Shown: one piece after another, positions 35,418 through 54,282 of the stretch | Position numbering within the stretch: position 1 is the stretch's first letter | Layout: the number at the start of each line of letters is the position of its first letter | Origin: Dictyostelium discoideum | Taxonomy: Eukaryota | Length of the DNA: 64,000 nt | Assembly: GCA_000004695.1 (NCBI GenBank) | Contig: CM000154.2 | Coordinates: 1,728,001-1,792,000 of the forward strand | Reading direction: 5' to 3' | Notes under the pieces: generated by a model | Databases searched by the model: none | Seen by the model: the letters and a program-made list of their open reading frames with translations, nothing else | What the model was told of the DNA's origin: nothing | Position numbers and translations under genes: made by a program

Positions 35418-36412
35418 AATTTATTTATAATTTTACTAATTTTTATTTTTAGTCATATTTTCCAAATAATTGTTCAAATATTTCAGATAAAAATTCATTA
35501 AGTTGTTGTTTAAAAATTGATAGTGATCAATTTAAATCTACGATGGATTATATAACGAGTGATAGTTTAAATACGAGTGTAATTGGAAGATTATATGATT
35601 GTAGAACCAATTCATCATTGGGTGGTGGATTTAAAATTGTTGAAGACAATGGAAATACACCAGATTTAGAGACAATGTCAAATGAATTGGATGTTATAGA
35701 TTCAAGAGAGAGTGTAAAAATATGTTTATCACAATTACAACAATTACAATGTTTTAAATGTTCACAAGATCATAAAACTATTTTAAGAGATTTTCATACA
35801 GATTTATTATATAGAATTGAAAGTGATCCAAATCATCAACCTTTATTCTATATAAAATCATCAACTTTTAAACATCCAATAATTGATACAAGTAATGATG
35901 GTTTTCCAACAACAGGTGCTGGTGGTGCTGATAATACAATACACTATATTGAAAAGGATATATCAAAAGGTAAATCTATTGCAATTTGTAATGATTATTT
36001 TGAAAAGTTAATGTCACATTGCCAATTTGTAAATGTTCGTGGTAAACCTTTAAATCAATTATTTCAACCATTAAATGGTAAACCAGCTGTATTCGATTCT
36101 GAAAATTATATTAATGAAATATTTGGTATTACAATCCCAAACTTGAATGAATTTGTTTATGTCTCATCTGATAATTTAGATTTGTTTTATGTTTCAAATT
36201 TTAATTGTTTCAAACAACCAATACCTAATTTTCAACAACCAACTTGTTCTTTAATTATTAATAAAAAATGGTATGAAAAATCTCAAAATAGTAATGATTA
36301 TAATAATAATAATGATAGTGATAATTCTTCATTTGGAATTTCAATTCAAAAATATTTAAATTCATTTTTAAATTCATTTATAATAATTTTAATAATAAAT
36401 ATTATTATTTAA
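35068..36412 (+). CDS. Hypothetical secreted Cys-containing protein with N-terminal signal peptide; 2 exons join(35068..35319,35453..36412)
   Basis: ATG at 35068. 'MYKFKTNLFLVIYFIAIFSIESS' is signal-peptide-like. Exon 1 ends '...DNSVV' at a GTAAGT donor (35320). The intron is an (ATT)n microsatellite with a TAG acceptor at 35450-35452. Exon 2 is 'SYFPNNCSNISDKNSLSCCLKIDSDQFKSTMDYI...', in frame with ORF 35543..36412. Several N-x-S/T sites are present. I recognise no family. Confidence 0.5.
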
Positions 36413-36516
36413 ATAAAATTAAATATTATTATTTTAAAATTAATTATTTATTATTTTTTTTTTTTAAAAAAAGATATTTAAAATATCTAAAATTATTTAA
36501 ATTATGTCATAATAAA

Positions 36517-36555
<39 letters not shown>

Positions 36556-36969
36556 CAGTTTGATATAATTATGTGCTTTTATTTATAAATAATTTTTTTT
36601 ATTTTTATTTTCATTTTTTATTTATTTTTTTTTTAAATGGGTGATATTTTTATTATCTATTTTGAAAATTTCTGCAAATATTGCTAAAAAAAAGCAATTG
36701 ATTTTTTTGATTTAAATTTATTTTTTTTTTAATTTTATTAAATTTTTTTTTTTTTTTTTTTATTAAAATGAACAACACTTTTTTAAAATAAAAAAAAAAA
36801 AAAGGTTTGGGAAAAAATTATAAAAAAATTTTTTTTTATTTTTTTTTTTAATATTTTCACAATCCCAATCACAATAAAATTTATTTATATAATATAAAAA
36901 TAAAAAAAAAAACAAATAAATATTTTTAAATTTTATTATCTTGAAAAAAATAAAAAAAATTAAAGAAAA

Positions 36970-37761
36970 ATGACAGAATCAGAAGTTTCAACACCAACTG
37001 TTGCACCACCAGTTATTTCATTGGCTGATAATGCAGATACAATTAAATTATATTCAAAGTATATTGTACCAGAGAATACTCCATTCAAAACAACTGATAA
37101 ACAAACTTTAATGGATAATTGTGCTTTCTTTGCTAAAATGTTTGTAAATCTCTCTGCCATGGCATTCAGTACTTTGGAACCATTGGATAAAAAAGAAACC
37201 AAAGAATTATCCAAAAAGGAAAAGAAGCAATTGAAAAAAGAAAAGAAAGCTCTCAAGAAAGAAAATAAAGGTGGTAAAGATAAAAAAGATAAAAAAGATA
37301 AAAAGGATAAAAAAGATAAAAAAGATAAAAAAGATAAAAAAGATAAAGGTGATAAAAAAGATAAAAAAGAAAAGAAAGAAAAGAAACATGATGATGATAA
37401 ATCAGAAGTCAAGGAAAAGAAAGAAAAGAAAGAAAAAGAAGATAGAACTATTGTAGAAATTAGAAATACCAAGAGTATTTTAGATGCATCTTCAACATCA
37501 GTATCAAGATTTGCTCCATGTATGATGTTTGTCAATTGTCCAAGTGGTCCAGCTGGTTTAGAATGTCGTATCTTAAAAGATACTTCAATCGCTAAATTAA
37601 AATCTGAAATTTGTTGGAATCAATATCTCACTAATCTCGTTCAATGCCAAGAAAGAGGTCTCTCCAAATGTTTCTCTAAATTTGTTGATTTACAAAAAAC
37701 TTGTAAACAAACTGAAATTCCAAAGAAATCTTTCTCTCTTTTTGATTCACTTTCTTATTAA
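36970..37761 (+). CDS. Hypothetical protein with central (KDKKDK)n / (EKKEKK)n basic repeat and a C-terminal 6-Cys domain
   Basis: A 263-aa ATG-initiated ORF. The central block is 'KGGKDKKDKKDKKDKKDKKDKKDKKDKGDKKDKKEKKEKK', encoded by an 18-nt tandem DNA repeat (gataaaaaagataaaaag)n at about 37270-37390. The C-terminus 'FAPCMMFVNCPSGPAGLECRILK...EICWNQYLTNLVQCQERGLSKCFSKFVDLQKTC' has six Cys. No family assignment. Confidence 0.5.
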   Translation: MTESEVSTPTVAPPVISLADNADTIKLYSKYIVPENTPFKTTDKQTLMDNCAFFAKMFVNLSAMAFSTLEPLDKKETKELSKKEKKQLKKEKKALKKENKGGKDKKDKKDKKDKKDKKDKKDKKDKGDKKDKKEKKEKKHDDDKSEVKEKKEKKEKEDRTIVEIRNTKSILDASSTSVSRFAPCMMFVNCPSGPAGLECRILKDTSIAKLKSEICWNQYLTNLVQCQERGLSKCFSKFVDLQKTCKQTEIPKKSFSLFDSLSY

Positions 37762-37771
37762 ATTTTCTAGG

Positions 37772-37805
<34 letters not shown>

Positions 37806-38483
37806 TTTTTTTTTTTTTAATCAATTTAATAATAATTCCATATCCATGTAAATATATTGAAATAAAAAAAAATAAAATAAATATAAAAAAAAAAACCACT
37901 TAAATCTTTCATTAAATATAAAAAAAATAAAATAAAATAAAATCATATAAAATATAAAATCAATATATATAAAAATAAATATTAAAATAAATAAAAAAAC
38001 AAATAAAAAAAAAAAAAAATTAAATTAATCTTTTTATATGTATTATTTAATAATTTTTTTTATAAATCGGATAATGGAATTATTGTTGTTTCTCATTGAG
38101 ATACTTGTTTTTTATTTTATTTATTGATTTTTTTTGATTGGAATATTGTTTTTAATGTTGTTTTGTATTGTTGTATCTCCTATTTATTCGAATAATATGT
38201 CTATTATGTTAACAGTTATTTTAAAATTTAAGCCTTTCAAAATCATCTAATTGTACATTTAATTTTATTTTTAATTTTTTTTTTTTTTTTTTTTTTAAAA
38301 AAAAATTTTTTAATCATTTAATTTTATTATTTTATAATTTTATTGTTTATTCTAATAAAATTTAAAAAAATGTAAATTTAAATCTAGCAAATAATTAACT
38401 AATATCTAAAAAAAAAAAAAAAAATGAAAATAATAATTAAAAATAAAAAATATACACAATTCCCAAATTTTTACTTAAATTTT

Positions 38484-38525
<42 letters not shown>

Positions 38526-38587
38526 GTGGTTTTTACGTAAAAACAAACAAATAATAAAAACAAAAAAAAAAAAAAAAAAAAAAAAGG

Positions 38588-39377
38588 ATGGGTAGAAGAT
38601 CATTTAATAAACAAGAACAACATAAAAAAAAATTAGAAATTAGTCAAACTATTAATTTACCACGTTCGTGGGATTATGTCAAAAAATTTACTCAACCATT
38701 TTTATATCCATTCAAATTTGAAACTTTAACCATTAAGCAATCAGAACTTGGTGATATTAAAATTAATGCAACTTTATGGGATACAGTAAGTTTTATTTCT
38801 TAAATACAAATTTGTATTATTTAAATAATACTAATAATTATTTTACTTTATTTTTTGGTTGAAAAAAAAAAAAAAAAAAAGGCAATTGTAATGTCAAAAT
38901 TCTTTGAAATTGTTATTGGTAGAGATGGATTAAAAGGAAAGAGAATTATAGAATTAGGTGGTGGTGTTGGATTAACAGGTATTGTTTTATCAAAAATGGG
39001 AGCAAATATTACAATTACAGAACAAAAATCAATGCATAGTATTTTAGATTTTAATGTTAGAAATAATTTAACAGATCTAAGTAAAACCAAAGTTTCAGAA
39101 TTATGGTGGGGTGATGATTTAACAAATTCAGAATATAAAGCACCTTATGATATGATCATTGGTTCAGATTTAATCTATGAAGATCATTGTATTGATTTAC
39201 TTTTAAAATCATTATTAGATTTATCTTCACATCATCCAAAACCAAAAAGTAAATATAGTGATATCATTGAACAAATTGATGCAAATAATGGTGAAATCCC
39301 TCAAGAATTATTAGAGAAATTAAAATTAGGTGAAAATGATGATAATAATGAAGATAATGAAGATAATGACCAACTTG

Positions 39378-39413
<36 letters not shown>

Positions 39414-39868
39414 TTAAAAATACTACTACTACGACTACTACAACAACAACAACAACTACTACTACTACTAATACTACCACAACTGAAACAAATACTGAAA
39501 CAAATACTGAAAATGATAATAAATCAAAGGAATTAAATTCAGAATTAAATATAAAAGAAAAAGAAAAGAAAAAGAAAAAGAAATCAATTAAAAAGAAAAA
39601 AGAAGATGATGAAGATCCAAAAAGTGAAGATTATTTATTTGCATCAGCATTACTTGAACCAGCTGATACTGTTATTTATTTAGGTTATGAAAATAGACAA
39701 ATGTCTGCAGAGTCAATATTTTTAAATAAGGTACATAATTATTTTGAAATTGAAGAAATTAAAACTACTCATTTAAATCCAGGTTTTGGTGGTGTTGATA
39801 TTAGAATATTAAAAATGAAAAAGAAACTTCAAACTTTAGAATTATTATTATCATATAATAAAAAATAA
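38588..39868 (+). CDS. Class I SAM-dependent protein-lysine methyltransferase, METTL21/family-16-like, with a long Asn/Thr low-complexity insert; 2 exons join(38588..38785,38882..39868)
   Basis: Exon 1 is 'MGRRSFNKQEQHKKKLEISQTINLPRSWDYVKKFTQPF...GDIKINATLWDT|GTAAGT'. An AG acceptor follows a poly(A) tract at 38880-38881. Exon 2 is 'AIVMSKFFEIVIGRDGLKGKRIIELGGGVGLTGIVLSKMGANITITE...LWWGDD...YDMIIGSDLIYE', which carries the motif I GxGxG and the DxxY motif typical of METTL21-type lysine methyltransferases. Confidence 0.7.
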
Positions 39869-39935
39869 AATAAATTAATAAATAAATAAATAATGTTTAT
39901 TAAAAATACCAAAATGGTAGATATTTTATTTTTTT

Positions 39936-41383
39936 TTAAGATAAAATTGTATTGTTATTATTATATTTTATACCAATTGGTAATTGATTTAATAATTTAC
40001 AAAAAAAGATATATTCATATTCTAAACATTTGATGATGTTATCTTTTGACAGAAAACCGTGACCTTCGCCAGGGAATAATTCTAAAATTGAGGGAATTCC
40101 TTTTGATTTTAAATGATCATACATTAATACTGATTGATTGTATGGAACTACATGATCCTCTAAACCATGAAATAAAGCAATTGGTGATTTCAATAGGTCT
40201 AAATGATTAATTGGTGATCTATCTTTATAGATTCTTTTCCATTCTCCATTTGGTCCATCAAGTTTCATTTCAGTGATTAAAGTATCTTGATATCTACTTT
40301 CAAATTTATGAGTTTCTTTGAATAGTGTTTCTAAATCTGCCACACCATAATAGGAACAACCACCTTTGAAAATATCATAAAATGTTAAACTACATAATGT
40401 TGCAAACCCACCAGCACTTCCACCATCAATAAACATTTTATCTTTATCAGCTAATCCCATTTTAACCATATGTAATGCTGCATTTACTAAATCAGCATTA
40501 TCATAAAGACCCCAATTTCCATTTAACAATTTTCTATATCTCTTACCAAATCCACTCGAACCTCTATAATTAACATCTAAAATTGCAAATCCTCTACTAG
40601 TCCAATATTGATATTCATAATTTAATACAGAATATGCTCTATCTGTTGGTCCACCATGTGATTTAACTAATAATGGTGGTGGTGGTGTTGTTGTTGTTGA
40701 AGAATCTTTCTTAAAAGTTGGTGGATAATAATATGCAAAAGCTTTTTCAATTAAATTATCAGATTTACTTGATGTATTAAATTCAATTTCAATTGGTTTT
40801 GAAATCATTGAGTCAGTAATTGATTCACCACCTTTAACATTTAAAAGTTGTTTAAATTCACATTTCTTTGAATCACTATTATAGTTTAATTTAATTGGTG
40901 AAAACATTACAGTTGATGAACCACCAATAAATAATGCAGTTGATAGTGATGGTGACGCAACTATTGATTTAACATGAGAGAATTGATTTCTAATGATTTG
41001 TTCAACTTGATTAGTTTCAATATTGAAAATTACCAAACCATAATCTGCTAAAGCTGCAATTAATTTGCTTGGTGTAATGAAACCATAATAACTTCTACCA
41101 AAATACCACATTGGTTCACCAATTTCTTTAAAATCAATTAATTCCGATGAGATTACTTGACTTCTTTTCTTTGATTTTAAATCATATTTATGAATGGTCC
41201 AATAACCATTTAAATCTGAAATAAAGTATAAACAATCATCAAATTCATTCCAAATTGGATTCAATACTGATTCTTCATAACCATTACTTATATTTATAAT
41301 TTCATTGGTTTTTAAATCTTTTATACAAACATTTGAATTATCCCATGGCATATTTGGAAAATTCCAATAAATATAAGCTAATA

Positions 41384-41438
<55 letters not shown>

Positions 41439-42136
41439 ATCTTTACCATTATAAAGTGTTGGATAAGCATAAAAGTCATGACCTTTTTCAATGATTTCAA
41501 TTTCATTGGTTTTTAAATTAATTTCAACTAAATAATGTAAAACTTCTTTTTCATTTGTATGATCTTCACAAACCATAATAACCTTTTCATTTTCTTTATT
41601 AACGGAACCACTTGAAAATCTTAATTTATTACTATTAGTGGAATTTGTGGTGTTTTTGTTTTTAAAAATTAATTTCTTTGGTTCATCATTCACTTTATAT
41701 GGATGGAATAAATATAATTCTTGAGTTTCACATTCTGAGAATAAAATTAAAAATTCCTCATCCTTATTTGATTTTGGTTCATTAATTATTGTAATTGAAT
41801 TACCACCATATTCAATTATTGAACTTATTATATTAAACTTTTTTGGTATTAAATCACTATTTTTTTTTTTTTTTTCAAAAATTATTAATTAATTTTGTTT
41901 TGGGAAGAAAAAAAAAAAAAAGAAAAAATAATAATAATAATAATAAATAATTACATTCTATTACCAAAATTATCAATTTGAATTAGAGTTGATCTTGTTT
42001 CTTCCTCTGGTATTATTTCAAAAAATAAAGAGAAATCATTATTTGATGGTTTAAAACTTTCTAAGTACCTTGAATCCTTATTATTAACAACCAAATCAAT
42101 TGAAATTAGGTTTAGATCATTACTTGTATCACTCAT
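39936..42136 (-). CDS. Peptidase family S9 serine hydrolase (acylaminoacyl-peptidase/prolyl-oligopeptidase-like: N-terminal beta-propeller plus C-terminal alpha/beta hydrolase); proposed complement(join(39936..41856,41955..42136)); alternative start at 42238
   Basis: The ORF 39936..41693 carries the nucleophile elbow 'IDGGSAGGFATL' and a C-terminal 'HGLEDHVVP' region. The reading frame stays open upstream of its first Met ('...SDLIPKKFNIISSIIEYGGNSITIINEPK...YKVNDEPKK'). A 5' exon 'MSDTSNDLNLISIDLVVNNKDSRYLESFKPSNNDFSLFFEIIPEEETRSTLIQIDNFGNR' (ATG 42136) joins via a phase-2 GTAATT donor (41954) and an AAATAG acceptor (41859-41857). The total is about 700 aa, the expected S9 size. Confidence 0.75.
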
Positions 42137-42589
42137 TGGTATAATGTTGGAATTTTTTTTTTTATGTTCACTAAAAATAGTAAAAACTAAAAAAAAGAAA
42201 AACAAACAAAAATATATTATGAAATTAAAAATTTTCATGAAAACTAAAAAAAAAAAAAAAAAAAAGATTTATAAACCAAAAATAAAAAAAAAAATTTTAA
42301 AAAAAAAAAATTAAACATCTCACTACTGGTGTTCTTTAGATCAACTTAAAAATTTAATACAAAAAAAAAAAAAATAAATAAAATAAATTTTTTTTTTTAT
42401 TTTTTTATTTTTTTTTTAACCTTATAAAAAGGGTTAAAAAAAAGATAATAATTAAAAATAAATGATTGACTAAAATTAAAAAAATCCAAATTCTTGATAA
42501 TTAAAAAATTTTCTTTTTTTTAAAAAATAATAACATAAATATTGGTTTTTTTATTTTATTTTATTTTTTTTACATTTAATTGGAATATA

Positions 42590-43346
42590 TTATGATTGGT
42601 AATATGGTTTTGAACGAATAGTATTTCTACAATAATTTTTAATTTCAGCAATAGTTAAATATCCATCTCTGTTTTTATCAATTTCAGTGAAAATATGATT
42701 AGCATTTTCTTTTGGATGATCTGAACCAATACTTTCAAAACATTGTTCAAGTTCTTTAAAATCAATTCTATTATCTCTATTTTTATCATATCTCAATAGA
42801 AATGCTTCAATATCATCTTGAAAATATTGTTTTATTTGATCCTCTCTTACTTTATCTTGATATCTTTTAAATATTTCTTCCTGAATTTCATCATATGAAA
42901 TTTTTCCTTATATACATTTAAAATTAAAAATTATTCGGTAAATAAAAAAAGAATAATATTTAAAAAAAAATAAAAAATTCATACCTTCATTATCTAGATC
43001 ATACATTTTAAATAATACAATTGCACATTTCTCTGGATATTTTGATCCCATCCTTTTAAAAAATTCAATAGCTTCATTTATAGTTACTTCTCCATTTTTA
43101 TCTCCATCATATTGACCAATTATTTCTTTTTTTTTTTTTTGTATATACATATTTTTTTTTTTAATAATTTAATATACACAAGAATAAAGAAAAAAATAAT
43201 TTTAAAAAAGATAATGTTAAATTAATTATTTATGTAAATTTTATTAATAAAAAAAATACTTTAAAAATATAAATTTTTTTTTTTAAAGTAAAATTTTTAT
43301 ACTTACTTTCAACATCTTTTTCTATTTGTTCATATATTCTTGACAT
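42590..43346 (-). CDS. Small four-EF-hand calcium-binding protein (about 165 aa); 3 exons complement(join(42590..42906,42985..43125,43307..43346))
   Basis: Exon 1 is 'MSRIYEQIEKDVE' (ATG 43346-43344) with a phase-1 GTAAGT donor. The 181-nt intron ends at an AAG acceptor at 43127-43126. Exon 2 is '(K)IIGQYDGDKNGEVTINEAIEFFKRMGSKYPEKCAIVLFKMYDLDNEG' with a phase-1 GTATGA donor (42984). After a 78-nt intron, exon 3 is 'KISYDEIQEEIFKRY...LRYDKNRDNRIDFKELEQCFESIG...TEIDKNRDGYLTIAEIKNY...'. There are four canonical EF loops: DGDKNGEVT, DLDNEGKIS, DKNRDNRID and DKNRDGYLT. Confidence 0.7.
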
Positions 43347-43625
43347 GTGTGTTTATTATTGTTTAAAAAAACATTAATAAAATAAAAAATAATAAAAACA
43401 GAATAATAAAAAAAAAAAAAAATTATTAACTGTGTTTAATTTACATTTAAATTTTTTTATTTTTTTTTTTGGTATATATTTTTTCATTTTTTTTTTTTTT
43501 TTGTAATATTAATTTTTTGTAATATTAATTTTTAATTGCATATTAAAATATATGATTATATCTACATTTGATTAATATAAACCAAAATCTTTTCATAAAA
43601 ATAATTTTTGATAATTTTTTTTGAA

Positions 43626-43865
43626 AAATTAAGCTTAGTAATAATTATAAAAGTAAGCTGTTTGAAAAGTGAGGAAGGATTAATTTTTTAAGAAAAGTTT
43701 ATTTTTTATAAATCATTTAATTTTCAAAGCCTAAATATTATTAAAAAAATTAAGCTCAACTTAATGATAATTATAACTAAAAAATTAAGCTTAATCTAAT
43801 AATAATAAATTATTAAAGTATATATTAATGTGTTTCAAAAGTGGGAATCATTTTATTTTTTTATA
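43626..43865. repeat. Duplicated intergenic sequence elements in a bidirectional promoter region (box 'AAATTAAGCTYA' three times; about 60-80 nt composite unit twice)
   Basis: 'aaattaagcttagtaataattataa...gtttgaaaagtgaggaaggattaatttttt' (43626-43690) recurs as 'aaaattaagcttaatctaataataataaatt...gtttcaaaagtgggaatcattttattttt' (43781-43860). A third 'aaaattaagctcaacttaatgataattataac' sits at 43746-43777. The elements lie between the divergently transcribed EF-hand gene (5' end 43346) and the TM-vWA gene (ATG 44020). Confidence 0.5.
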
Positions 43866-44019
43866 AATCTTTTTTTACTATTTTAAGTCATAGGAAAAAA
43901 ATAAAAAAAAAAATAAATAAAAAATAAAAAAAAAATAAAAAAAATAAAAAAAAATGTATTTAAATCAATGGAATTTTTAAATTTTTAAATATATATATTA
44001 TTAATAATTTCAAATAATA

Positions 44020-45449
44020 ATGTCAGATATATTTTCTACTCATTTAAAAAATTATTTTCTATCTTTTTACGGTAGTGGAGTAAAATTAATAGATTTACTT
44101 TTTAAAGATAGTTGTAATTTTAGATCTATTTCACTATTTGATATTTTAAACTGTTTTATTTTAATTTTAATTATTAAAATAGCAATTGTTAGTTTAACCT
44201 TAACAAATGTGGTAACCTTTTTTATTTTATCAATATTTAATATTATATTATTTATATTACTTTTAATTCTTCTTTTATTTAAAATCAAATTCATCTTTTT
44301 AAGTTTAAAAAGTCACACAAGCAATACACCATCATTTACAGTTGGTCCATATCACCCATCAGTTTTTGCAACTATAAAAAATAAAAAATCTTTACATTCA
44401 CAAAAACATAAAAGCAATATCTCTGAAAATGGGGCATTTTATTTTTCATTTCTTGATGATGGTTATTATGAAACAGAATTGTAAGTAATTTTTTTAAAAA
44501 AAAATTTAAATCTTTTTAATTAATATAAAATAAAATTTATTGGGATTTTTTAAATAATAATTAATTTTTAGTTTTATTGAAAATGGTCATTCAAATAAAT
44601 TGGTATTAAAAAAAATTGAAATTGTTAAGCAAAGGTGATAAATTTACACCAGATTTTATTGATTTATCATCATCAATAGTTGATGTATCATTCCGTGCAT
44701 TTGATAAACCAGTTTCAAATTCAAATGTAAAAGGAACAATTGAAATGTTAAATGATGGTAGCAAAGTATCATTCACTTCAAAAACTGATGAAAATGGAAC
44801 ATATTCAACTATATTACCAGAGTGTAAAATTTCAATTGATGTTGAAGGTACTGTTGATGGAAATCCAGTTAAAATCAATGAAACCATTGATATTCAAAAA
44901 CCAGAAGTTATAAACAGTATTGAAGAATTAAAAGATATTAAACCAAAATCATTTGAAAAATCTGAAAAATGTACAGATTATAATATTAAAAGTAAATCAA
45001 AAAAGAGTGTTCTTTTAGTAGATGTATCTTGTTCAATGGGTGGCCAACCATTGGAAGTGGCAAAGAGTAATTCCAAAAAATTCATTATAGATTCTCAACT
45101 ATTTGCAATTGGAGCTTGGTCTGATGCAATAAAATTCTTTAAAGACTCTTGGGAAACCTCTTCAAATATATCAGCTGCCAATTCATGGATTGATGGTTTA
45201 TGTGTAAATGGTGGTACCGATATTAAACAAGCCATTGAGGGAGCAATTTCAAAGTTCAAAGATGCTGATGAGTTTTGGATTTTATGTGATGGAGATACTA
45301 GTACTTTCCCAGATTTACAATCTTGGTCAAACTTTTATTCAAATAATTCAAAATACTTAATTAACTTTGTTGGAATTGGTGGTTCATCAGACGAAAGAAT
45401 GAAAAACATGGCACAAATTAGTAGAGGTAAATTCATAAAAGTTTGTTAA
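44020..45449 (+). CDS. Membrane protein with an N-terminal multi-TM region, a carboxypeptidase-regulatory-like/Ig-like beta-sandwich segment and a C-terminal von Willebrand factor A (vWA) domain with a MIDAS motif; proposed join(44020..44482,44631..45449)
   Basis: Exon 1 (ATG 44020) encodes hydrophobic helices 'CFILILIIKIAIVSLTLTNVVTFFILSIFNIILFILLLILLLF' and ends '...GYYETE(F)' at a phase-2 GTAAGT donor (44483). The downstream frame (ORF track 44616..45449, whose 'M' is a TTG) has no ATG and is closed upstream by TAA at 44607, so it must be an internal exon. The only frame-compatible acceptor is the weak AAG at 44628-44630; the stronger TTTTAG at 44570 leads to a stop after 22 codons. Exon 2 is '(F)KGDKFTPDFIDLSSS...VKGTIEMLNDGSKVSFTSKTDENGTYSTILPECKISIDVEG...'. 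The vWA domain reads 'VLLVDVSCSMGG...FAIGAWSD...NGGTDIKQAIEGA...FWILCDGDTS' with a DxSxS...T...D MIDAS arrangement. Confidence 0.5.
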
Positions 45450-45776
45450 GATTTCCAAAAAAAAAAAAAAAAAAAAAAAACTGAAAAAAAATTGAAAAAA
45501 TAGTTTTTTTGGTGTAAATAAATAGAGAAATAAAATAGATATACAAAATAATATTAAAAAAAACAAATGTAATAATTCCTTTCCCAAATTATATTCATAT
45601 CTTTTTTTTTAAATTATTAAAGTTTTTTCTAACTAAACTATATTCATGAAAAAAAAAAAATATAAAGCTCTCTTCCTCATTAATCGGATTAAGTTATTAT
45701 CATTATTTTTTTAATACTCAAATTTAATTATTAAATTATTTTTTTATTTTATTTGATAAACTTGGATATGATAAAT

Positions 45777-45814
<38 letters not shown>

Positions 45815-45938
45815 GAGAAATTAATTAATTTTAAATAATTTTTTTTTTTATTTGAAGAGTTTTTATTTAATTGTTTATTTTTAGTGCCATTCATTTAACC
45901 AATCTAAATTATAATTATAAAATTAATTTAAAATGTCT

Positions 45939-45969
<31 letters not shown>

Positions 45970-46013
45970 CTAAATAATAAATCAAAGCGAAATACTTTTA
46001 TTTATTTTTTTAT

Positions 46014-46917
46014 TTATCTGTGAGAAGCTAATGTGAAAATACCAGCTACCAAAGCAGTAAAACATCCACATAAGGTTGACCACCATCCACCACCTGGTAA
46101 CCATTTGAAATAATCGTCATCACCAATAATTTTATCACACCATCTCTCTTCACATGCTCCAAGAAGATTGGCACTAAGAACTTCAGTATCATCATAGAAT
46201 GCTTTTGGTGCACCCAAAAATGTAAAGAATGATATGAATAACATGACAATGGTTGCAATTGAACAACCAATACATAAAAGTTTCCAAACGCATGATCTGC
46301 ATAATTTTGGTGATAAAAGAAGAATTAATTGTAAAAGAGCAGTACCAAGAGCAAGAGCTGATGCAATTACCAAGAAACTAAGTGAAGAGTTTAAAATTTT
46401 TGAAATATTATCAACACTGAGTGGATTTACAAGAGCTGATGCAACACAAAGTTTGGTTGCAATTGAATTTGAATCAATTTCATCATCATCATAATTTAAT
46501 GTTAATTTCTAAAATAAAAAATAAATAATTAGTATATGTTTTTTTTAAAAAAAAAAAAAATAATAAAAATAAAATAATAAAAAATAGTTATATTAAAAAA
46601 ATCAAGAATTGTGTATAAAAAAAAAAAAAAAAAACAAACTTACATCTTCACCATCAGTTTGGCATGAGAATTTTTTCCAACTATATTGTACTACAACTTT
46701 GTCTAGTATTTTAGTTTCTTTCTTTTCAATTTGATACCATCTATTATTATTTATTTATTTAAATTTTTTTTTTTTTTTTTTTTTCAATAAAAAAAAAAGT
46801 TATTAGAAGAATGAAAAAAAAAAAAAAATAAAAAATAAATACATACGGTAATGCAAAAGAAATTATACAACAAACTAAAACAATTACTGATAATGCAATT
46901 CCAATTTTTAATTTCAT
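46014..46917 (-). CDS. Hypothetical small 4-TM membrane protein (about 220 aa) with Cys-containing extracellular loops; 3 exons complement(join(46014..46508,46644..46740,46847..46917))
   Basis: Exon 1 is 'MKLKIGIALSVIVLVCCIISFALP' (ATG 46917) with a phase-2 GTATGT donor. Exon 2 is '(P)WYQIEKKETKILDKVVVQYSWKKFSCQTDGED|GTAAGT'. Exon 3 is 'KLTLNYDDDEIDSNSIATKLCVASALVNPL...' running into ORF 46014..46373 ('...LGACEERWCDKIIGDDDYFKWLPGGGWWSTLCGCFTALVAGIFTLASHR'). The splice phases are all consistent, and the introns are about 100-135 nt and AT-rich. Confidence 0.5.
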
Positions 46918-47552
46918 TTTTTATATATATATATATTTTTTTTTTATAGTACAACAATTTTATTATTTATTTTTTATTTTTTATTTTTTTTTATATATCT
47001 TTTTGATATTTTATAAATATTTAAAAATAAAAGATATTTTAGTTTTTATTTTATATTTTTATGAAAATGAAAAAGAAAATGATTGTCAGTTGCCAGTTTT
47101 ATACTGAAATTTTCCATAAAAAAAAAAAAAATCAAAAAAAAAATTAAAAAAAATTAAAAATAAATGATTTTTTTCATTAAAAGAATTAAACTGTTTCATT
47201 CAGGTTTTTTTTTATTTTAAATTTTTTTTATTTTTATTTTTATTTTTTTTTTGAAAATTTTTTATAGATGTAATCTGAAAATGATGATAATTCCGAAAAG
47301 TCCAAAAATTATTTTTATTATTTGAATTAAAAAATTTTTAGGGCACTCTCTTTTCTTAATTTTTTTTTTTTTTTTGAATTGGTTATTATAAAATATTCTA
47401 AAATACAAAAAAAACAAAAAAAAAATTTTTATTTTGAATAAAATATTTTTCAAACACTCTTTAATTAATTAATTAATTTATAAAAAAAGTGATTGGTGGT
47501 GTGATTTTTTTTTTTTTTTATTATGGGGTAATGACTAAAAATGATGATAAAA

Positions 47553-47594
<42 letters not shown>

Positions 47595-47760
47595 TTCAAT
47601 TTTTTTTGAAGTTTTTCTTTTATTCCTCATTACTTTTCAAACTTCAACAAATTATTTGAATAAATGAAATCGGTTTTTTTTTTAAATAAAATTGATTCTA
47701 TGATTTTATGATTTGAGATAGTTTAATTTTAAATTATTTTATTTTATTTTATTTATTTAT

Positions 47761-47960
47761 TTATTTTTTTTTATTAATTAAATTTGAGAAATGAAAAAAA
47801 ATAATAATAACCAATCCAACTAATGAGACAAGTATCTCAAAGAGAACTGGTACTTGAACTTTTAATGTGTATTTTCCATTTTTATCTGTAACAACATCTG
47901 CAGTCTTAGTTCTATTTGGTGAAGTGATAATAACTTGAAGACCTGATAATGAGTTTACTG

Positions 47961-47998
<38 letters not shown>

Positions 47999-48200
47999 GA
48001 ATATCAGGTTAAACACACTAATCACCTGGTGAGGAACATCTTCATTTGTATTTATTCACAGGTCCTTAAGTTGTTGATTGAATAACCATTTGAGCACAGC
48101 AATATGTACTTGGGTACTTTAACGCGTATTTACAATTTTCATAAATAACAAGATCTGGGATTGAGCTTCCTTTTATGGTGTGATAACTGATAATAAATAG
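47761..48200 (-). CDS. Partial/unresolved gene whose 3' exon (47761..47942) encodes a carboxypeptidase-regulatory-like beta-sandwich segment, a C-terminal TM helix and a short basic tail
   Basis: The minus strand after the acceptor 'tcattatcag' (AG at 47944-47943) reads '(x)LQVIITSPNRTKTADVVTDKNGKYTLKVQVPVLFEILVSLVGLVIIIFFHFSNLINKKK*' with the stop at 47763-47761. The region upstream at 48000-48200 contains open coding-like stretches ('...IISYHTIKGSSIPDLVIYENCKYALKYPSTYCCAQM...', 'MKMFLT|GTGATT'), but I could not find a phase-consistent exon chain. A (TA)16 tract at 47961-47992 lies in the presumed intron. Confidence 0.3.
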
Positions 48201-48409
48201 TTGATCTGATTATTCTTTATTATTGTTAATGTTTTTTTTTTTTTAAAAAAAAAAATTAAATATGTGGACTGAATATAAAATTTAAATTAAATAGTTATTA
48301 CCTTTTTTTTTAATAATAACATAATGCCTTTTTATAAAAAATAAATAAATAATAACGAATAAAAAATATTAAAACTATTAAAACTATTAAAACTATTATA
48401 TTTTTTAAA

Positions 48410-48443
<34 letters not shown>

Positions 48444-48535
48444 AAAACTTGAAGATACCTGTTTAAGATTTTAAGTTAAAAAAAATAGATTTATTAAAAA
48501 ATAATGAAACATTGCTTGGGATTTTCACCCTCACT

Positions 48536-49634
48536 TTAATTGTTAATCTCTTCATCTTCTTTTTGATTTTGATTTTGATTCTGATTTTGATTTTGATTCT
48601 GATTTTGATTTTGATTTTGATTCTGATTTTGATTTTGATTCTGATTTTCATTATTACTATTATTATTATTACTGTTATTATTATTATTAACTTTATTATT
48701 GGTATTAGTGTTTTTATTTTGAATATTTTGATCATTTTGATTATTATCTATTGATTCGGGATAAAAAGTGATTTCTCTAGGAATTCTTTTTACAGTGTCC
48801 CTAGATTTCTTTTCGAAAACATTAAAACTGGCTCTAATGGCTGAAGCATTTTTCAACTCAAATTGAATCCACTTAAAATTTTGGCTAGATGATGCTTCAG
48901 ACTGACTTATATCACTACTATTAGTATTACAGAATAATGGTGCAGACTTTTTACAAAGTAAAAGTGAAAGTATAGTTCGAAGAATAACACTATGTGAAAC
49001 TATTAAAATATGATAATTATTATTATTGATGTCGCTATTATTATTATTATTATTATTAAAAGAAGATTGTGATGGTAAAATAATATCACTATTATTACCA
49101 TTACCATCACCATCATTATTATTACTATTATTATTATTATTATTATTATTTTCATTATTTATAGAAATACCATTATTTATATATTTTGATGGTATTTGTT
49201 TTAAAATAAATTGAAAAGCCTCTTTTGCTCTACGAATTAATTTTGATTTTGACTCCATTTTCAATTCTTTTTGTGGGAGATGTTTTAAAATATTTGAAGT
49301 GAGTTTTACATTGGTTGGTGTTGGAAATGAATTTGATGGAATTGGTACTTCCAATGATGATGAAAGTGATGAAAATGATGAAAATGATGAATTGGATGAT
49401 GTTGAAAAATTAGAAATCGATGATGACGATGAAGATAATGATGTTGTTTGTGAAGATGATCTTGGTGATGATGGTATTGATGATGCTGTCGATTGCACTG
49501 CTGTTGATGTATATGATGCAGTTGATGATAATGATGGTGTTTGCGATGATGTTGTCGTTTTCATTGTTATACTTTTAATTTCTTGTAAATTAATATTGAG
49601 ATGTTGTGGTTCTTGTTGCTGTTGCTGTTGTTGC

Positions 49635-49683
<49 letters not shown>

Positions 49684-50156
49684 CTATATATAATTGATTT
49701 AATTGATTTTGTAATGATAATTGTTGTTGTTGATGATGATTTGATGGTGGTAAGAATGATAGTGATGGTTTTTGATTTAATAATTTTTGAATTTCAATTG
49801 CTTTTTTAGCATCTGGAATTTCTTCCCAATGTACAAGTTGTCTAAGGTCAACACCTTCCAATTTACCAAGGTTACGTTCTCTTAAGAGTTGAGTGGATTC
49901 AATGCTTGGCAATATGTTGTTATTGTTATTGCCGCTACCACTAGTATGATTATTTATAATTAATTGTTGTCTTATTATTGAGGCGGTTTCAAATGCTCTA
50001 TCCAAATCTGATGAGATTATTAAATTAATTGGCATATTCCCCCTTGATAATCTTTCGCCTGCTGATATTGCTTGATGTCTACCTTTATTATTTAATGGTA
50101 TATTTAAGTGGCCTTGTAAAATTCCATTTTTATTAAAATCTGTCTCACCATGTCTA
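48536..50156 (-). CDS. Histidine phosphatase/phosphoglycerate-mutase family protein with very long poly-Q, poly-N, Ser-rich and (NQ)n low-complexity regions; 5' end unresolved (probably an upstream exon lost in low-quality sequence)
   Basis: The catalytic 'RHGETDFNKNGILQGHLNIPLNNKGRHQAISAGERL...NLIISSDLDRAFETASII' carries the RHG motif of branch-1 histidine phosphatases, and a later 'HILIVSHSVILRTIL' segment is present. The reported M at 50221 is a TTG translated from a poly(A) tract. A TTTTAG acceptor lies immediately before 'ACATGGTGAGACAGAT', implying an upstream exon. The C-terminus is an (NQ)n repeat encoded by a (gattttgattctgatt)n-like periodic DNA. Confidence 0.55.
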
Positions 50157-50344
50157 AAATAAAATAATAAAAAAAAAATAAAAAATAAAAAATAAAAAAA
50201 AAAGAGAAATGATAAAAACAATTAGAAACTCGATTTAATTTTGATTAAGTAGGGGGAACCATTTTTTTTTTTTTTTTTTTTTCAAACTTTTTAATTTTCT
50301 CTTGAACTTCTTTTTGGTTAAAAAAAGTTTTTTATTTTTATTTT

Positions 50345-50394
<50 letters not shown>

Positions 50395-50403
<9 letters not shown>

Positions 50404-50500
50404 CCCCCCGGGGAAAAAGGGTTTATGGGAAAATTTGGGGGGGTTTTTTTTAAAAAAAAAAAACCGGGCCTTTTTTTTTTTTGGGGAATTTAAACCCCCC

Positions 50501-50547
<47 letters not shown>

Positions 50548-50640
50548 CAAAGTTGGAGTAAATTTTTTTTTTTTTTTTTTTTTTTTGGGAGGTTTGTGGG
50601 CTGGTTTATTATAATAATTTAAATAATAAATAAAAATAAA
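50395..50640. other. Low-quality/artefactual sequence: G/C homopolymer stutter within poly(T)/poly(A)
   Basis: 'accccccccggggaaaaagggtttatgggaaaatttgggggggttttttttaaaaaaaaaaaaccgggcctttttttttttggggaatttaaaccccccg' has the same character as the artefact next to the 14914 gap. It is flanked by poly(T) runs of 40-60 nt. Confidence 0.55.
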
Positions 50641-51013
50641 AGGGGATTTTAACTTAAAAAAGGGACATATTTGGTTGAGTTTATTCAAATAATGCCCCTT
50701 TTTTTTTTTTGTTTTTTTTTTTTTTTTGGTTTTTTTTTTTTTTTTATTTATTTATTTAAAAATTTTATTTATTTATTTTTTTTTTTTTTTTTTTTTTAAA
50801 AAAAATCATATATCATAATAACAACAATTATTTTTTAAAATTACCTCTTGAACCTGAGGATTAAGGGAAAAAAGAAGAGAAAATTAAAAAGAAGAAAATT
50901 ATGGGGTTTTTTTTTTTTTTTTTTTTTTTCGGAATGGTTATACTAAAAAAATAATAACCCTTGCCTCCCAAAAGTAAAGTTTACCACCCTCAAGATGGTA
51001 ATAAAGTTATAAG

Positions 51014-51062
<49 letters not shown>

Positions 51063-51684
51063 TTGTTCTCGATTACTTTTTTTTTTTTTTGTTTTTGGTT
51101 ACTTTTTTTTTAGTTTTTTAGTTTTTAAGTTTTTTCTTTGTTGAGTTTAATAAAAAGAAACGATGATACAAAAAAAAAAAATTTTATAAAAAAAAAAAAA
51201 AAAATTTAAAAAAAAAAATTAATAAAATTAAAAATTAAAAATTAATAAAATTAAAAAATAATATAAATTAAAAAAAAAAAAAAAGGGTTATTTATTTGTT
51301 TTGTGTGTGTGTGTGTGGTTTTCAAAAAATGAGAAAAAAAAAAATATAAAAAAATAAAAAAAAATTAAATTTAATTCAAAAAAAAATAAAAAATAAAAAA
51401 ATAAAAAATAAAAAAAAATAAAATTTTATTTCGACAAATTATTATGTGGACGAAACGAAATCAATTTGCCTCCTGGTTAAATTAAAATTGCAAATAAAAC
51501 TGTTTTCTAAAAATATGAAATTCTTTTTTACATTTTTTTTTTTTTTTTTTTATTTCTATTTTTTGTTTCTATTTTTTTTGATTTGAAACTAAAAAAAATG
51601 TTTAAATAATTTCATTTAATTTAATTTCCAAAAAAAAAGAATTTTTAATAAAATCAAATATTTTAATTGTGTTTTAAATAATTG

Positions 51685-51715
<31 letters not shown>

Positions 51716-51746
51716 ATTTAATTATTTTTTTTTTTTTTTTTTTTTT

Positions 51747-53186
51747 TTAATGATCATCTTTACTTAATTCTCTTGAAATGATTAATCTCATAACAGCATC
51801 AGAACCTTCCAAAATACGATGAACACGAAGATCACGTAAATATCTTTCAACTGGATAATCTTTAAGATAACCATAACCACCAAATAATTGAAGTGAATCA
51901 TCGGTAACTTTGAAACATTCATCACAAGCAAATAATTTTGCCATTGCAATGTAAACATGAGCAGATGGATCTTTTGCATCCAACATTGCAGCGGCATTTC
52001 TAATCATAATACGAGATGCATGTAATTTAGTGGCCATATCTGCCATTTTAAATTGAACGGCTTGGAAATGTTCCAATGGTTGATTGAATTGTTTTCTAAC
52101 TTTAACATGATCTCTAGCGGCCACCAAACAAGATTGGGCCCCACCCAAACTACAAGCACCAATGTTGATACGACCGCCGTTTAAAGCGTTCATAGCAATG
52201 GAAAAGCCTTGACCCTCTTTGCCAATTAAATTGCCAACTGGTACACGACAATCTTCGAAAATCAATGCACGAGTTGGTTGGGTGTTCCAGCCTAGTTTCT
52301 CCTCCTTTTTGCCGAAGCTAAGGCCTGGGGTGTCCTTCTCCACCAAGAGACAGGAGATCCCCTTTGGTCCCTTCTCCGCGCCCGTTCTGACCATGACTAA
52401 ATAGACCTCGCTGTCGCCACCCCCGCTAATGAATGCCTTGCTTCCATTTAAAATATAATGATCGCCATCTTTGGTTGCTTTGGTTGACAATGAGCCTGCG
52501 TCCGAGCCGCTACCAGGCTCAGTTAGACAATAGCTTGCAATCTTTTCCATACTAACTAATGATGGTAAAAACTTTTTACGTTGTTCTTCTGTACCGTATA
52601 TATCTATTAAACCTGCACACATATTATGAATACTAATGAATGCTGTTGTTGAGACATCTGCTGATGCCAATGCCTCTATAATTATCGATGCATCCAATCT
52701 ACTCAATCCTGATCCACCTACATCCTCTCTAACATAAATACCACCAAATCCTAATTCTGCTGCTTCTCTCATCACATCTCTTGGAAAATATTCCTCTTTA
52801 TCCCATTTCTCTGCAAATGGTTTCATCTTTTCTTGTGCAAAATCTAATGCCATTGATTGAAATTGTTTTTGATCCTCTGTTAATCCAACACTTGCTAAAA
52901 TTTAAAAAAAATAAATAAATAAATATTAATAATTATTCAAATAAATGTTTGAATAAAATTTTTTTTTTTTATCTTTTATTTTTATTTTTTTTTTGTCATT
53001 TTGAGTTTCATTGTGTTGTATTGTTTTTTTTTTTTTTTTTTTTTCATAAATATATACATATATATAATTAAAAGGTATCTTACGATTTGGTACAATATTA
53101 AAGAATGTACGACGTTGTAAAACTAATTTGGTTGCATTTTGTAAAACACTTTGTTTATTTGATAATTTAAATAAACCAGAAATCAT
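51747..53186 (-). CDS. acad8: Isobutyryl-CoA dehydrogenase (ACAD8-type acyl-CoA dehydrogenase), mitochondrial; exons complement(join(51747..52894,53084..53186))
   Basis: Exon 1 is '[34 protein letters not shown]' (a presequence-like N-terminus, ATG 53186) with a phase-1 GTAAGA donor at 53083. A TTTTAG acceptor sits at 52897-52895. Exon 2 is '(P)[31 protein letters not shown]...' followed by the ACAD signatures '[19 protein letters not shown]', '[17 protein letters not shown]' and '[18 protein letters not shown]'. The total is about 416 aa. Confidence 0.85.
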
Positions 53187-53213
53187 TGTGGTGTATATTC
53201 CTTTGGTTTTGTA

Positions 53214-53262
<49 letters not shown>

Positions 53263-53533
53263 AATTTCAAAAAAAAAAAAAAAAACAAAAGGTAAAAATA
53301 AATAAAATTTTTTTATAAGCAAATAATTTAAAAAATTAAAAAAAAAATTATTTGTTTTGAATAAAAAGTATTTTTCTTTTTTTAAAAATCGACAATAAAT
53401 CTATTATGAATCACCAGACCTTTTGAAATTAATTTTTTTCTATGGGATTTTTTTTTATTTAACTATTTCCCTTCTTTGTAAAAAACCTTTTTAAATTAGG
53501 CAAAATAATAAATTAATAAATAAATAAATAAAA

Positions 53534-53564
<31 letters not shown>

Positions 53565-53591
53565 AAAAATAAATAAATAAAAAATCTATTA

Positions 53592-53628
<37 letters not shown>

Positions 53629-53876
53629 TATCATTTTCCTTTATTAATGAATGGTTTAATTTTAAAAATTTAATGAATTTTTTATAATGGACAAAGAAAT
53701 AAATTCTTAACAACTTAATTCGTAAACACCCTAAAATGCAATACATAATATTAGTAGTGAAATTAATAAAATAACTTACAAAATCAACACAACTTTTTTT
53801 CCAAAAAATGGTTTTTTTTGTGGCACCTAAAAATTTTTTACACAAATTAATAGGAGTAGTTGGGGTTTTGGTCCTT

Positions 53877-53915
<39 letters not shown>

Positions 53916-54282
53916 AACTATACAGGAATAGGGGGTGAAAAGTGATCAATTTTATTTTAAAATCTTATTAAAATAAATTATTTTCCACTTTTTTTATTTT
54001 TTATTTTTAATTTTTCATTTTTTTTTTTTTTGTTTTCATTATTATAAAAATATCTTTTTATTGGACAGAAAAAGACGATTAATTTTTTTTTTTTTTTTTT
54101 ATTTTTCTTCCCAAACGATTTAAAAAAAAAAAAAAAAATAAATAAAAAAAAAAAAAGAAAAAAAAAAAAAAAAATCTTTTTTTTATTAGAAAAATCATTT
54201 TGCCTAACAACCCCACCAATAATAATAATAATAATAATAAAAATAAATAAATATAAATAAATATAAATAAATATAAATAAAA

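Follow-up and report, generated by a model that had tools for sequence, protein, structure and literature searches.

Results

Layout of the locus and its reading frames

The window (by which we mean the whole 64,000-nt stretch of Dictyostelium discoideum DNA analyzed here) has a G+C content of about 21%, and its closest database matches are Dictyostelium genomes. Two open reading frames on its plus strand are considered here: one at 44020-44484, which begins with ATG and whose 154 codons are strongly hydrophobic in content, and one at 44616-45449, whose 277 codons end in the vWA domain. A previous, sequence-only reading of this DNA had described the second frame as lacking an ATG and as bounded by a stop, which is accurate, the upstream bound being a TAA at 44607-09. 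Between the two frames lie a donor, GTAAGT, starting at 44481, and an acceptor, TTTTTAG, extending up to 44571, both of which conform to consensus. Past this canonical acceptor, the phase of exon 1 reads F-FIENGHSNKLVLKKIEIVKQR and then encounters TGA (44636-38) and TAA, and the sole AG that would place exon 1 in the vWA frame is the AAG at 44627-29, so that both halves of the dilemma posed by the sequence-only reading are borne out. The canonically spliced sequence is 1339 nt long (3n+1), and its path from ATG to the vWA stop is interrupted by the TGA at 44636-38, downstream of a +1 insertion of A. A second intron was considered and rejected, there being no room for one and the orthologues having none. 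Coordinates of all features are collected in Table 1.

Table 1. Features of the vWA gene and its frameshifted allele (window coordinates)
Feature	Position	Strand	Remarks
Exon 1	44020..44480	+	461 nt, phase-2 end; N-terminal segment, hydrophobic hairpin, first half of beta-sandwich 1
Hydrophobic hairpin, aa ~38-95	44131-44304	+	Kyte-Doolittle, AF2 helices
Start of beta-sandwich 1, aa ~104	44329	+	Within exon 1
69-nt "intron" of two database models	44114..44182	+	Most likely coding for the first TM helix
Intron, 91 nt, phase 2, GTAAGT...TTTTTAG	44481..44571	+	Same codon position in five orthologue gene models; DNA alignment
Start of exon 2, exon 1 frame	44572..44633	+	Encodes FIENGHSNKLVLKKIEIVKQ, final strands of beta-sandwich 1
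AAG alternative acceptor	44627..44629	+	Lys codon of ...IVKQ... in orthologues
Frameshift site, +1 insertion, AAA run	44631..44633	+	CAA-A-GGT versus CAA-GGT in orthologues
Premature stops TGA, TAA, exon 1 frame	44636..44641	+	Conceptual product of 175 aa, C-terminal end ...IVKQR
Beta-sandwich 2, ancestral aa 175-260	44634..44891	+	No longer in frame with the start codon; holds the KGTIEMLNDG... segment
vWA domain, ancestral aa 296-445	44997..45449	+	Complete MIDAS, stop TAA 45447-49; stranded by the frameshift

In every species examined, the vWA gene has as its neighbor, on the other strand, a gene for an EF-hand protein (~165 aa; 42908-43150 in the window, minus strand). Upstream of the vWA gene, three exact copies of AAATTAAGCTYA occur within 170 nt (43626-43794) and none elsewhere in the 64 kb, and two of the three are conserved at the orthologous locus of the ACTFIR assembly. 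When one mismatch is allowed, the window-wide count is 4 against 3.0 expected, which is not above chance, and the clustering alone is notable. Analysis of the flanks for repeats yielded low-complexity A/T runs only.

Orthologues define a single two-exon gene

A homology search returned ten proteins, none from outside the D. discoideum species group, and the intact proteins among them are 445 to 460 aa long and read ...YYETEFFIENGHSNKLVLKKIEIVKQGDKFTPDF... Orthologues are present in assemblies labeled D. discoideum (ACTFIR_001647 and ACTFIW_012481) and elsewhere in the group (ACTFIZ_003529, ACTFIU_003833, ACTFIV_008934, ACTA71_001251, and RB653_008494 [D. firmibasis]), each of which carries the annotation of a hypothetical or a VWFA domain-containing protein. 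To establish gene structure, we compared orthologous loci of five Dictyostelium genomes (L003, L004, L005, L007, and L008, where L003 is that of the ACTFIR assembly), a set to which ACTFIW_012481 and ACTFIV_008934 do not belong. The same EF-hand gene adjoins all five, which establishes synteny, and at all five the only model that reproduces the annotated protein has a single intron, in phase 2 and at an identical codon position (TT/GTAAGT...AG/, with slashes at the exon borders), these orthologue gene models being predictions themselves. The hydrophobic and vWA frames of the window hence belong to one gene, as the sequence-only reading had supposed.

The orthologues splice at the canonical acceptor, reading ...YYETEF/FIENGHSNKLVLKKIEIVKQGDKFTP..., and pass uninterrupted across the site that is defective in the window (...ETEF/FIENGH...IVKQGDKFTP...). 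This in-frame read of the intact proteins means that the canonical acceptor is used and that translation continues from it into the vWA part. Similarity to the window is high on both sides of the intron: exon 1 is 97% identical to ACTFIR_001647 over 153 aa, and the 20-aa peptide from 44572-44633, which is coding in all orthologues, is 100% identical to that protein.

A single inserted A separates the window from intact alleles

Alignment with Dictyostelium vWA proteins, which the sequence-only reading had called for, shows that one extra A sets the window apart. In both DNA and codon alignments, the window has AAA at 44631-33 where all five orthologues have AA; it reads AAG-CAA-A-GGT, and the orthologues all read AAG/AAA-CAA/AAT/AGT-GGN, so that the one extra A is the one difference. 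The suspicion that something is wrong near the exon junction was thus well founded, but the cause is a 1-bp insertion within exon 2, 60 nt from its start and at the border between the two sandwiches described below, and not the junction itself. Removal of one A yields an ORF of 445 aa with no further stop or indel, 93 to 97% identical to ACTFIR_001647. As it stands, the +1 insertion produces the premature TGA and leaves the vWA frame cut off from the start codon.

The same AAA is present in the D. discoideum assembly GCA_054883475.1 (ACTFIT; chromosome CM142511.1), in which the gene is identical to the window at 1430 of 1430 positions. That this is a different assembly is evident from its 13 mismatches and 8 gaps relative to the window over 16 kb (99.7% identity). 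Logan contigs of SRR28564543 and SRR28564540 also have AAA, and all Logan contigs found keep the intron; these two runs may share a project with GCA_054883475.1, and the window and that project constitute independent sources. Relative to the intact orthologues, therefore, the disabling mutation is confirmed in independent data.

Another assembly labeled D. discoideum, GCA_054859385.1 (ACTFIR), is syntenic with the window over 17 kb (35929-54144) at a DNA identity of only about 85 to 91%. Given the 99.7% identity of ACTFIT, the label "D. discoideum" therefore seems to span deeply diverged lineages.

Conflicting database models and alternative readings of the allele

Two database entries model this allele, and they disagree. 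GenBank KAM9947344.1 (403 aa), annotated on identical DNA, has introns at 44481-44629, with the AAG acceptor, and at 44114-44182; UniParc UPI00004E2E5D (152 aa) shares the latter, 69-nt intron, uses the canonical acceptor, and ends in ...VKQR. Across six species, the 44114-44182 segment shows no indels, its third-position changes are synonymous, and pN/pS is about 0.38, and the GT donor of this "intron" is missing in three of the five orthologues (L003, L007, and L008). It is probably a prediction artifact in AT-rich, TM-coding DNA.

The sequence-only reading had offered a sequencing error as one way out of the reading-frame conflict, and it is true that a single base in a short run of A explains the whole defect: were the true sequence AA, the gene would be intact at 445 aa. 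We nonetheless regard an error of sequencing or assembly as highly improbable. The AAA also occurs in a genome that was assembled independently and departs from the window at other positions, as well as in contigs from at least two SRA runs, and these assemblies together therefore speak against a sequencing error; in addition, a three-base run is not error-prone, and the old UniParc entry has the same truncation. The other way out that had been offered, an unusual splice, would require an intron of 149 nt (44481-44629, GTAAGT...TTAAG), which puts exon 1 directly in frame with the vWA domain and specifies a protein of 425 aa (403 aa in the GenBank model), with sandwich 1 shortened by 20 residues and sandwich 2 and the vWA domain kept. 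The phase is compatible, no other AG intervenes between the canonical one and the AAG, the downstream ORF has no further defects, and KAM9947344.1 has exactly this intron. To be used, however, the AAG would have to be chosen over the TTTTTAG acceptor, strong and conserved, that lies 58 nt upstream in an otherwise normal intron, and the 58 nt thereby skipped are coding in five orthologues and encode a peptide without a single difference from ACTFIR_001647. Their loss would cost 20 conserved residues and two predicted strands of sandwich 1 (148-156 and 164-174). KAM9947344.1 itself also places the dubious 69-nt intron in sequence that is conserved and TM-coding, a sign of an automated workaround, and we consider splicing of this kind unlikely.

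Recoding could in principle achieve the same result, in that a +1 ribosomal frameshift at CAA-AGG-UGA-U would restore the vWA frame, which is intact downstream. The context, a rare AGG codon ahead of UGA-U, may be loosely akin to the stop-codon settings in which +1 frameshifting takes place. Yet the shift site is found in no orthologue, the five of them reading CAA/AAT/AGT-GGN in frame, so that nothing about it is conserved; the re-pairing from AGG to GGU would be poor, no stimulatory element was noticed, and the chance that such a shift operates here appears minute. Considering both routes, we doubt that the frameshifted allele still makes a vWA protein, whether via the AAG acceptor (with a remodeled sandwich 1) or via AGG-UGA recoding; if it did, the insertion would have created a new isoform instead of a dead gene.

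Domains of the ancestral protein

On the ORF at 44616-45446, VWA_3 (PF13768) scores 31 bits against a gathering threshold of 27 (E = 3.2e-7), and 5 of 7 homologues also pass this threshold. The MIDAS (DxSxS...T...D) is complete, consisting of DVSCS (45021-45035), the T of GGTD, and LCDGD, and its columns (D304, S306, S308, T369, D393, and D395) are invariant in the family alignment; metal binding is predicted. In the AF2 model of ACTFIR_001647 (P0002, the 93%-identical orthologue), pLDDT is about 80 over aa 296-445, and the alpha/beta, Rossmann-like vWA fold is recovered: Foldseek matches the model to the vWA domains of CLCA1 (E = 2e-8, TM 0.74), ITIH1 (E = 1e-10), and also ANTXR2. When searched against the PDB, the family sequence profile matches 8s05_A, the "conserved protein" chain of the ArnAB complex (1.9e-6). 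Profile and structure matches alike uphold the vWA domain and complete MIDAS that had been read from the sequence, although the domain had been credited with the C-terminal two-thirds of the gene and occupies only the last third (aa 296-445, 44997-45446).

Upstream of the vWA domain, the predicted structure of aa 104-260 is all beta, arranged as two sandwiches. This region had been likened to CarboxypepD_reg/SdrD-B sandwiches, which is probably apt at the level of fold and does not extend to Pfam membership: in ACTFIR_001647, CarboxypepD_reg (PF13620) reaches 14.9 bits at best against a gathering threshold of 32.3, and SdrD_B (PF17210) reaches 13.2 bits against 29.7. Weak matches below threshold recur among the seven family members (CarboxypepD_reg in 7 of 7, best E of 1e-3; SdrD_B in 3 of 7, best E of 2.7e-3).

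Nearer the N terminus, a hydrophobic stretch spans aa 33-99 by Kyte-Doolittle, with AF2 helices at 39-59 and 64-97. As modeled, this region is a hairpin of about two helices and no polytopic domain; the term "polytopic," applied earlier, overstates a hydrophobic stretch of roughly 55 residues.

A paralogue decayed in the opposite lineage

In strain AX4, DDB_G0291658 (409 aa, VWFA domain-containing) is a paralogue of the window gene, sharing the same module and 78% identity over the sandwich-vWA part. It resides at another locus, is absent from the window, and has a hydrophobic region reduced to one segment. In other assemblies, the locus of the DDB_G0291658 type is flanked by Redoxin and HAD genes. 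The gene is annotated as intact in AX4, but its counterparts in other assemblies, where we inspected loci L009 3249-4370 and L010 3001-4103, are not: in the ACTFIR copy (GCA_054859385.1; one or the other of these two loci) the vWA domain is interrupted by an in-frame stop, between DADEF and ILCDGD, and the ACTFIY copy (GCA_054859205.1) is fragmented over three frames and has a large deletion. The lineage with the intact copy of the window gene thus lacks the paralogue, and the window lineage, in which AX4 keeps the paralogue, lacks this copy, which amounts to reciprocal decay. Judging from these sequences, the two genes are recent duplicates inactivated reciprocally in sister lineages, and such reciprocal paralogue loss would provide a small evolutionary example.

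Relative to the intact ACTFIR allele, dS is about 0.06. The 271 codons downstream of the frameshift contain no second disabling mutation, and over this part dN/dS is 0.31 against the intact orthologue, a value based on small counts (15 nonsynonymous and 12 synonymous changes). When polarized with outgroups, the window branch carries about 5 nonsynonymous and about 3 synonymous downstream changes, too few to separate neutrality from constraint, and the vWA family as a whole is fast-evolving (pN/pS of 0.4 to 0.6). The intact state of the downstream codons fits a very recent insertion, but it is also compatible with continued expression of the downstream part.

The sandwich-sandwich-VWA_3 module in a wider family

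Used in a word-indexed homology search, the family profile found nothing beyond the first ten proteins, and the distant relatives were reached by an exhaustive profile search only. This search recovered 607 proteins at E <= 1e-3, with alignments that cover both the sandwich and the vWA parts for at least 25 clusters; the Dictyostelium family profile aligns to this wider family at positions ~100-443, with E values from 1e-84 to 1e-15. The sandwich-sandwich-VWA_3 module is, by this search, widespread in eukaryote-like sequences (P0014-P0062 and P0145), and it is shared by D. purpureum DICPUDRAFT_81636, Synstelium polycarpum EP01133_P016783, and metagenomic proteins. One relative has Ig I-set domains. 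In another distant relative, P0145, EF-hands are fused directly to the sandwich-vWA module, and this fusion and the adjacency of the EF-hand gene in Dictyostelium may reflect a functional link.

Neither source names nor literature searches indicated any characterized member of the sandwich-sandwich-VWA_3 family, and literature searches on DDB_G0291658 and on Dictyostelium vWA pseudogenes found nothing relevant; the module is apparently an uncharacterized one of eukaryotes. Its fusions to SAM, SH3, EF-hand, or membrane anchors point to intracellular scaffolding and away from adhesion, and since the distant relatives join the same module to SAM, SH3, or EF-hand domains, the label "adhesin-like" that had been given to the protein is disfavored.

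Discussion

The allele in the window is best explained as a recent +1 frameshift allele of a two-exon gene conserved in the D. discoideum species group, either a pseudogene or a source of, at most, a truncated product of 175 aa, a reading to which we assign a probability of roughly 0.8. The ancestral gene encoded 445 aa, made up of a short N-terminal segment, a two-helix hydrophobic hairpin, two sandwiches probably of the prealbumin/CnaB-like type, and a C-terminal VWA_3 domain with its MIDAS complete, and in the D. discoideum lineage of the window one A was inserted at 44631-33, between the sandwiches. The canonical acceptor is presumably used in the window strain as it is in the orthologues. 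Normal splicing, joining 44480 to 44572, would then give an mRNA whose ORF, because of the inserted A, halts at the TGA. The gene would now yield a membrane stub of no more than 175 aa, with sandwich 2 and the vWA domain left untranslated, so that we infer a recent unitary pseudogene or loss-of-function allele. Its loss may be tolerated, in that AX4, the reference strain of the lineage, retains the recent paralogue DDB_G0291658.

From its domains, the ancestral protein was probably a membrane-tethered, metal-ion-dependent protein-binding module. A cytosolic orientation of the vWA domain is more likely than an outward one, given that both ends of the hairpin would lie on one side, that basic flanks occur on both sides, and that relatives contain domains characteristic of cytosolic proteins (SAM, SH3, and EF-hand).

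These results are useful chiefly for annotation. The same DNA has been given three models that conflict with one another, namely, the truncated 152-aa UniParc protein, the 403-aa GenBank protein, and the two unlinked ORFs of the read assemblies; the comparison with orthologues shows an ancestral gene of 445 aa with one intron, broken here by a single inserted A. Nor is the protein novel in kind, a possibility that the sequence-only reading had entertained. GenBank already lists intact orthologues, under the names hypothetical protein or VWFA domain-containing protein, and the window allele is most likely an ordinary inactivated copy of an uncharacterized family.

In domain order, all of these orthologues are the same as the window gene, the closest being 93 to 97% identical to it in protein sequence, but they are intact at 445 to 460 aa, whereas the window allele has the +1 insertion of A and a premature stop. 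Members of the wider family differ more at their N termini, where a longer hydrophobic region, SAM, SH3, EF-hand, or Ig I-set domains stand in place of the two-helix hairpin of Dictyostelium. The modeled sandwiches probably resemble those of the prealbumin/CnaB-like type (CarboxypepD_reg and SdrD_B), a likeness at the level of fold only. The vWA domains of ITIH1 (6fpy), CLCA1 (6pyo), and ANTXR2 have folds like that of the orthologue model; identity to solved vWA structures is only 11 to 22%, and the context of the domain in the window gene, behind a TM hairpin and two sandwiches, is different from theirs.
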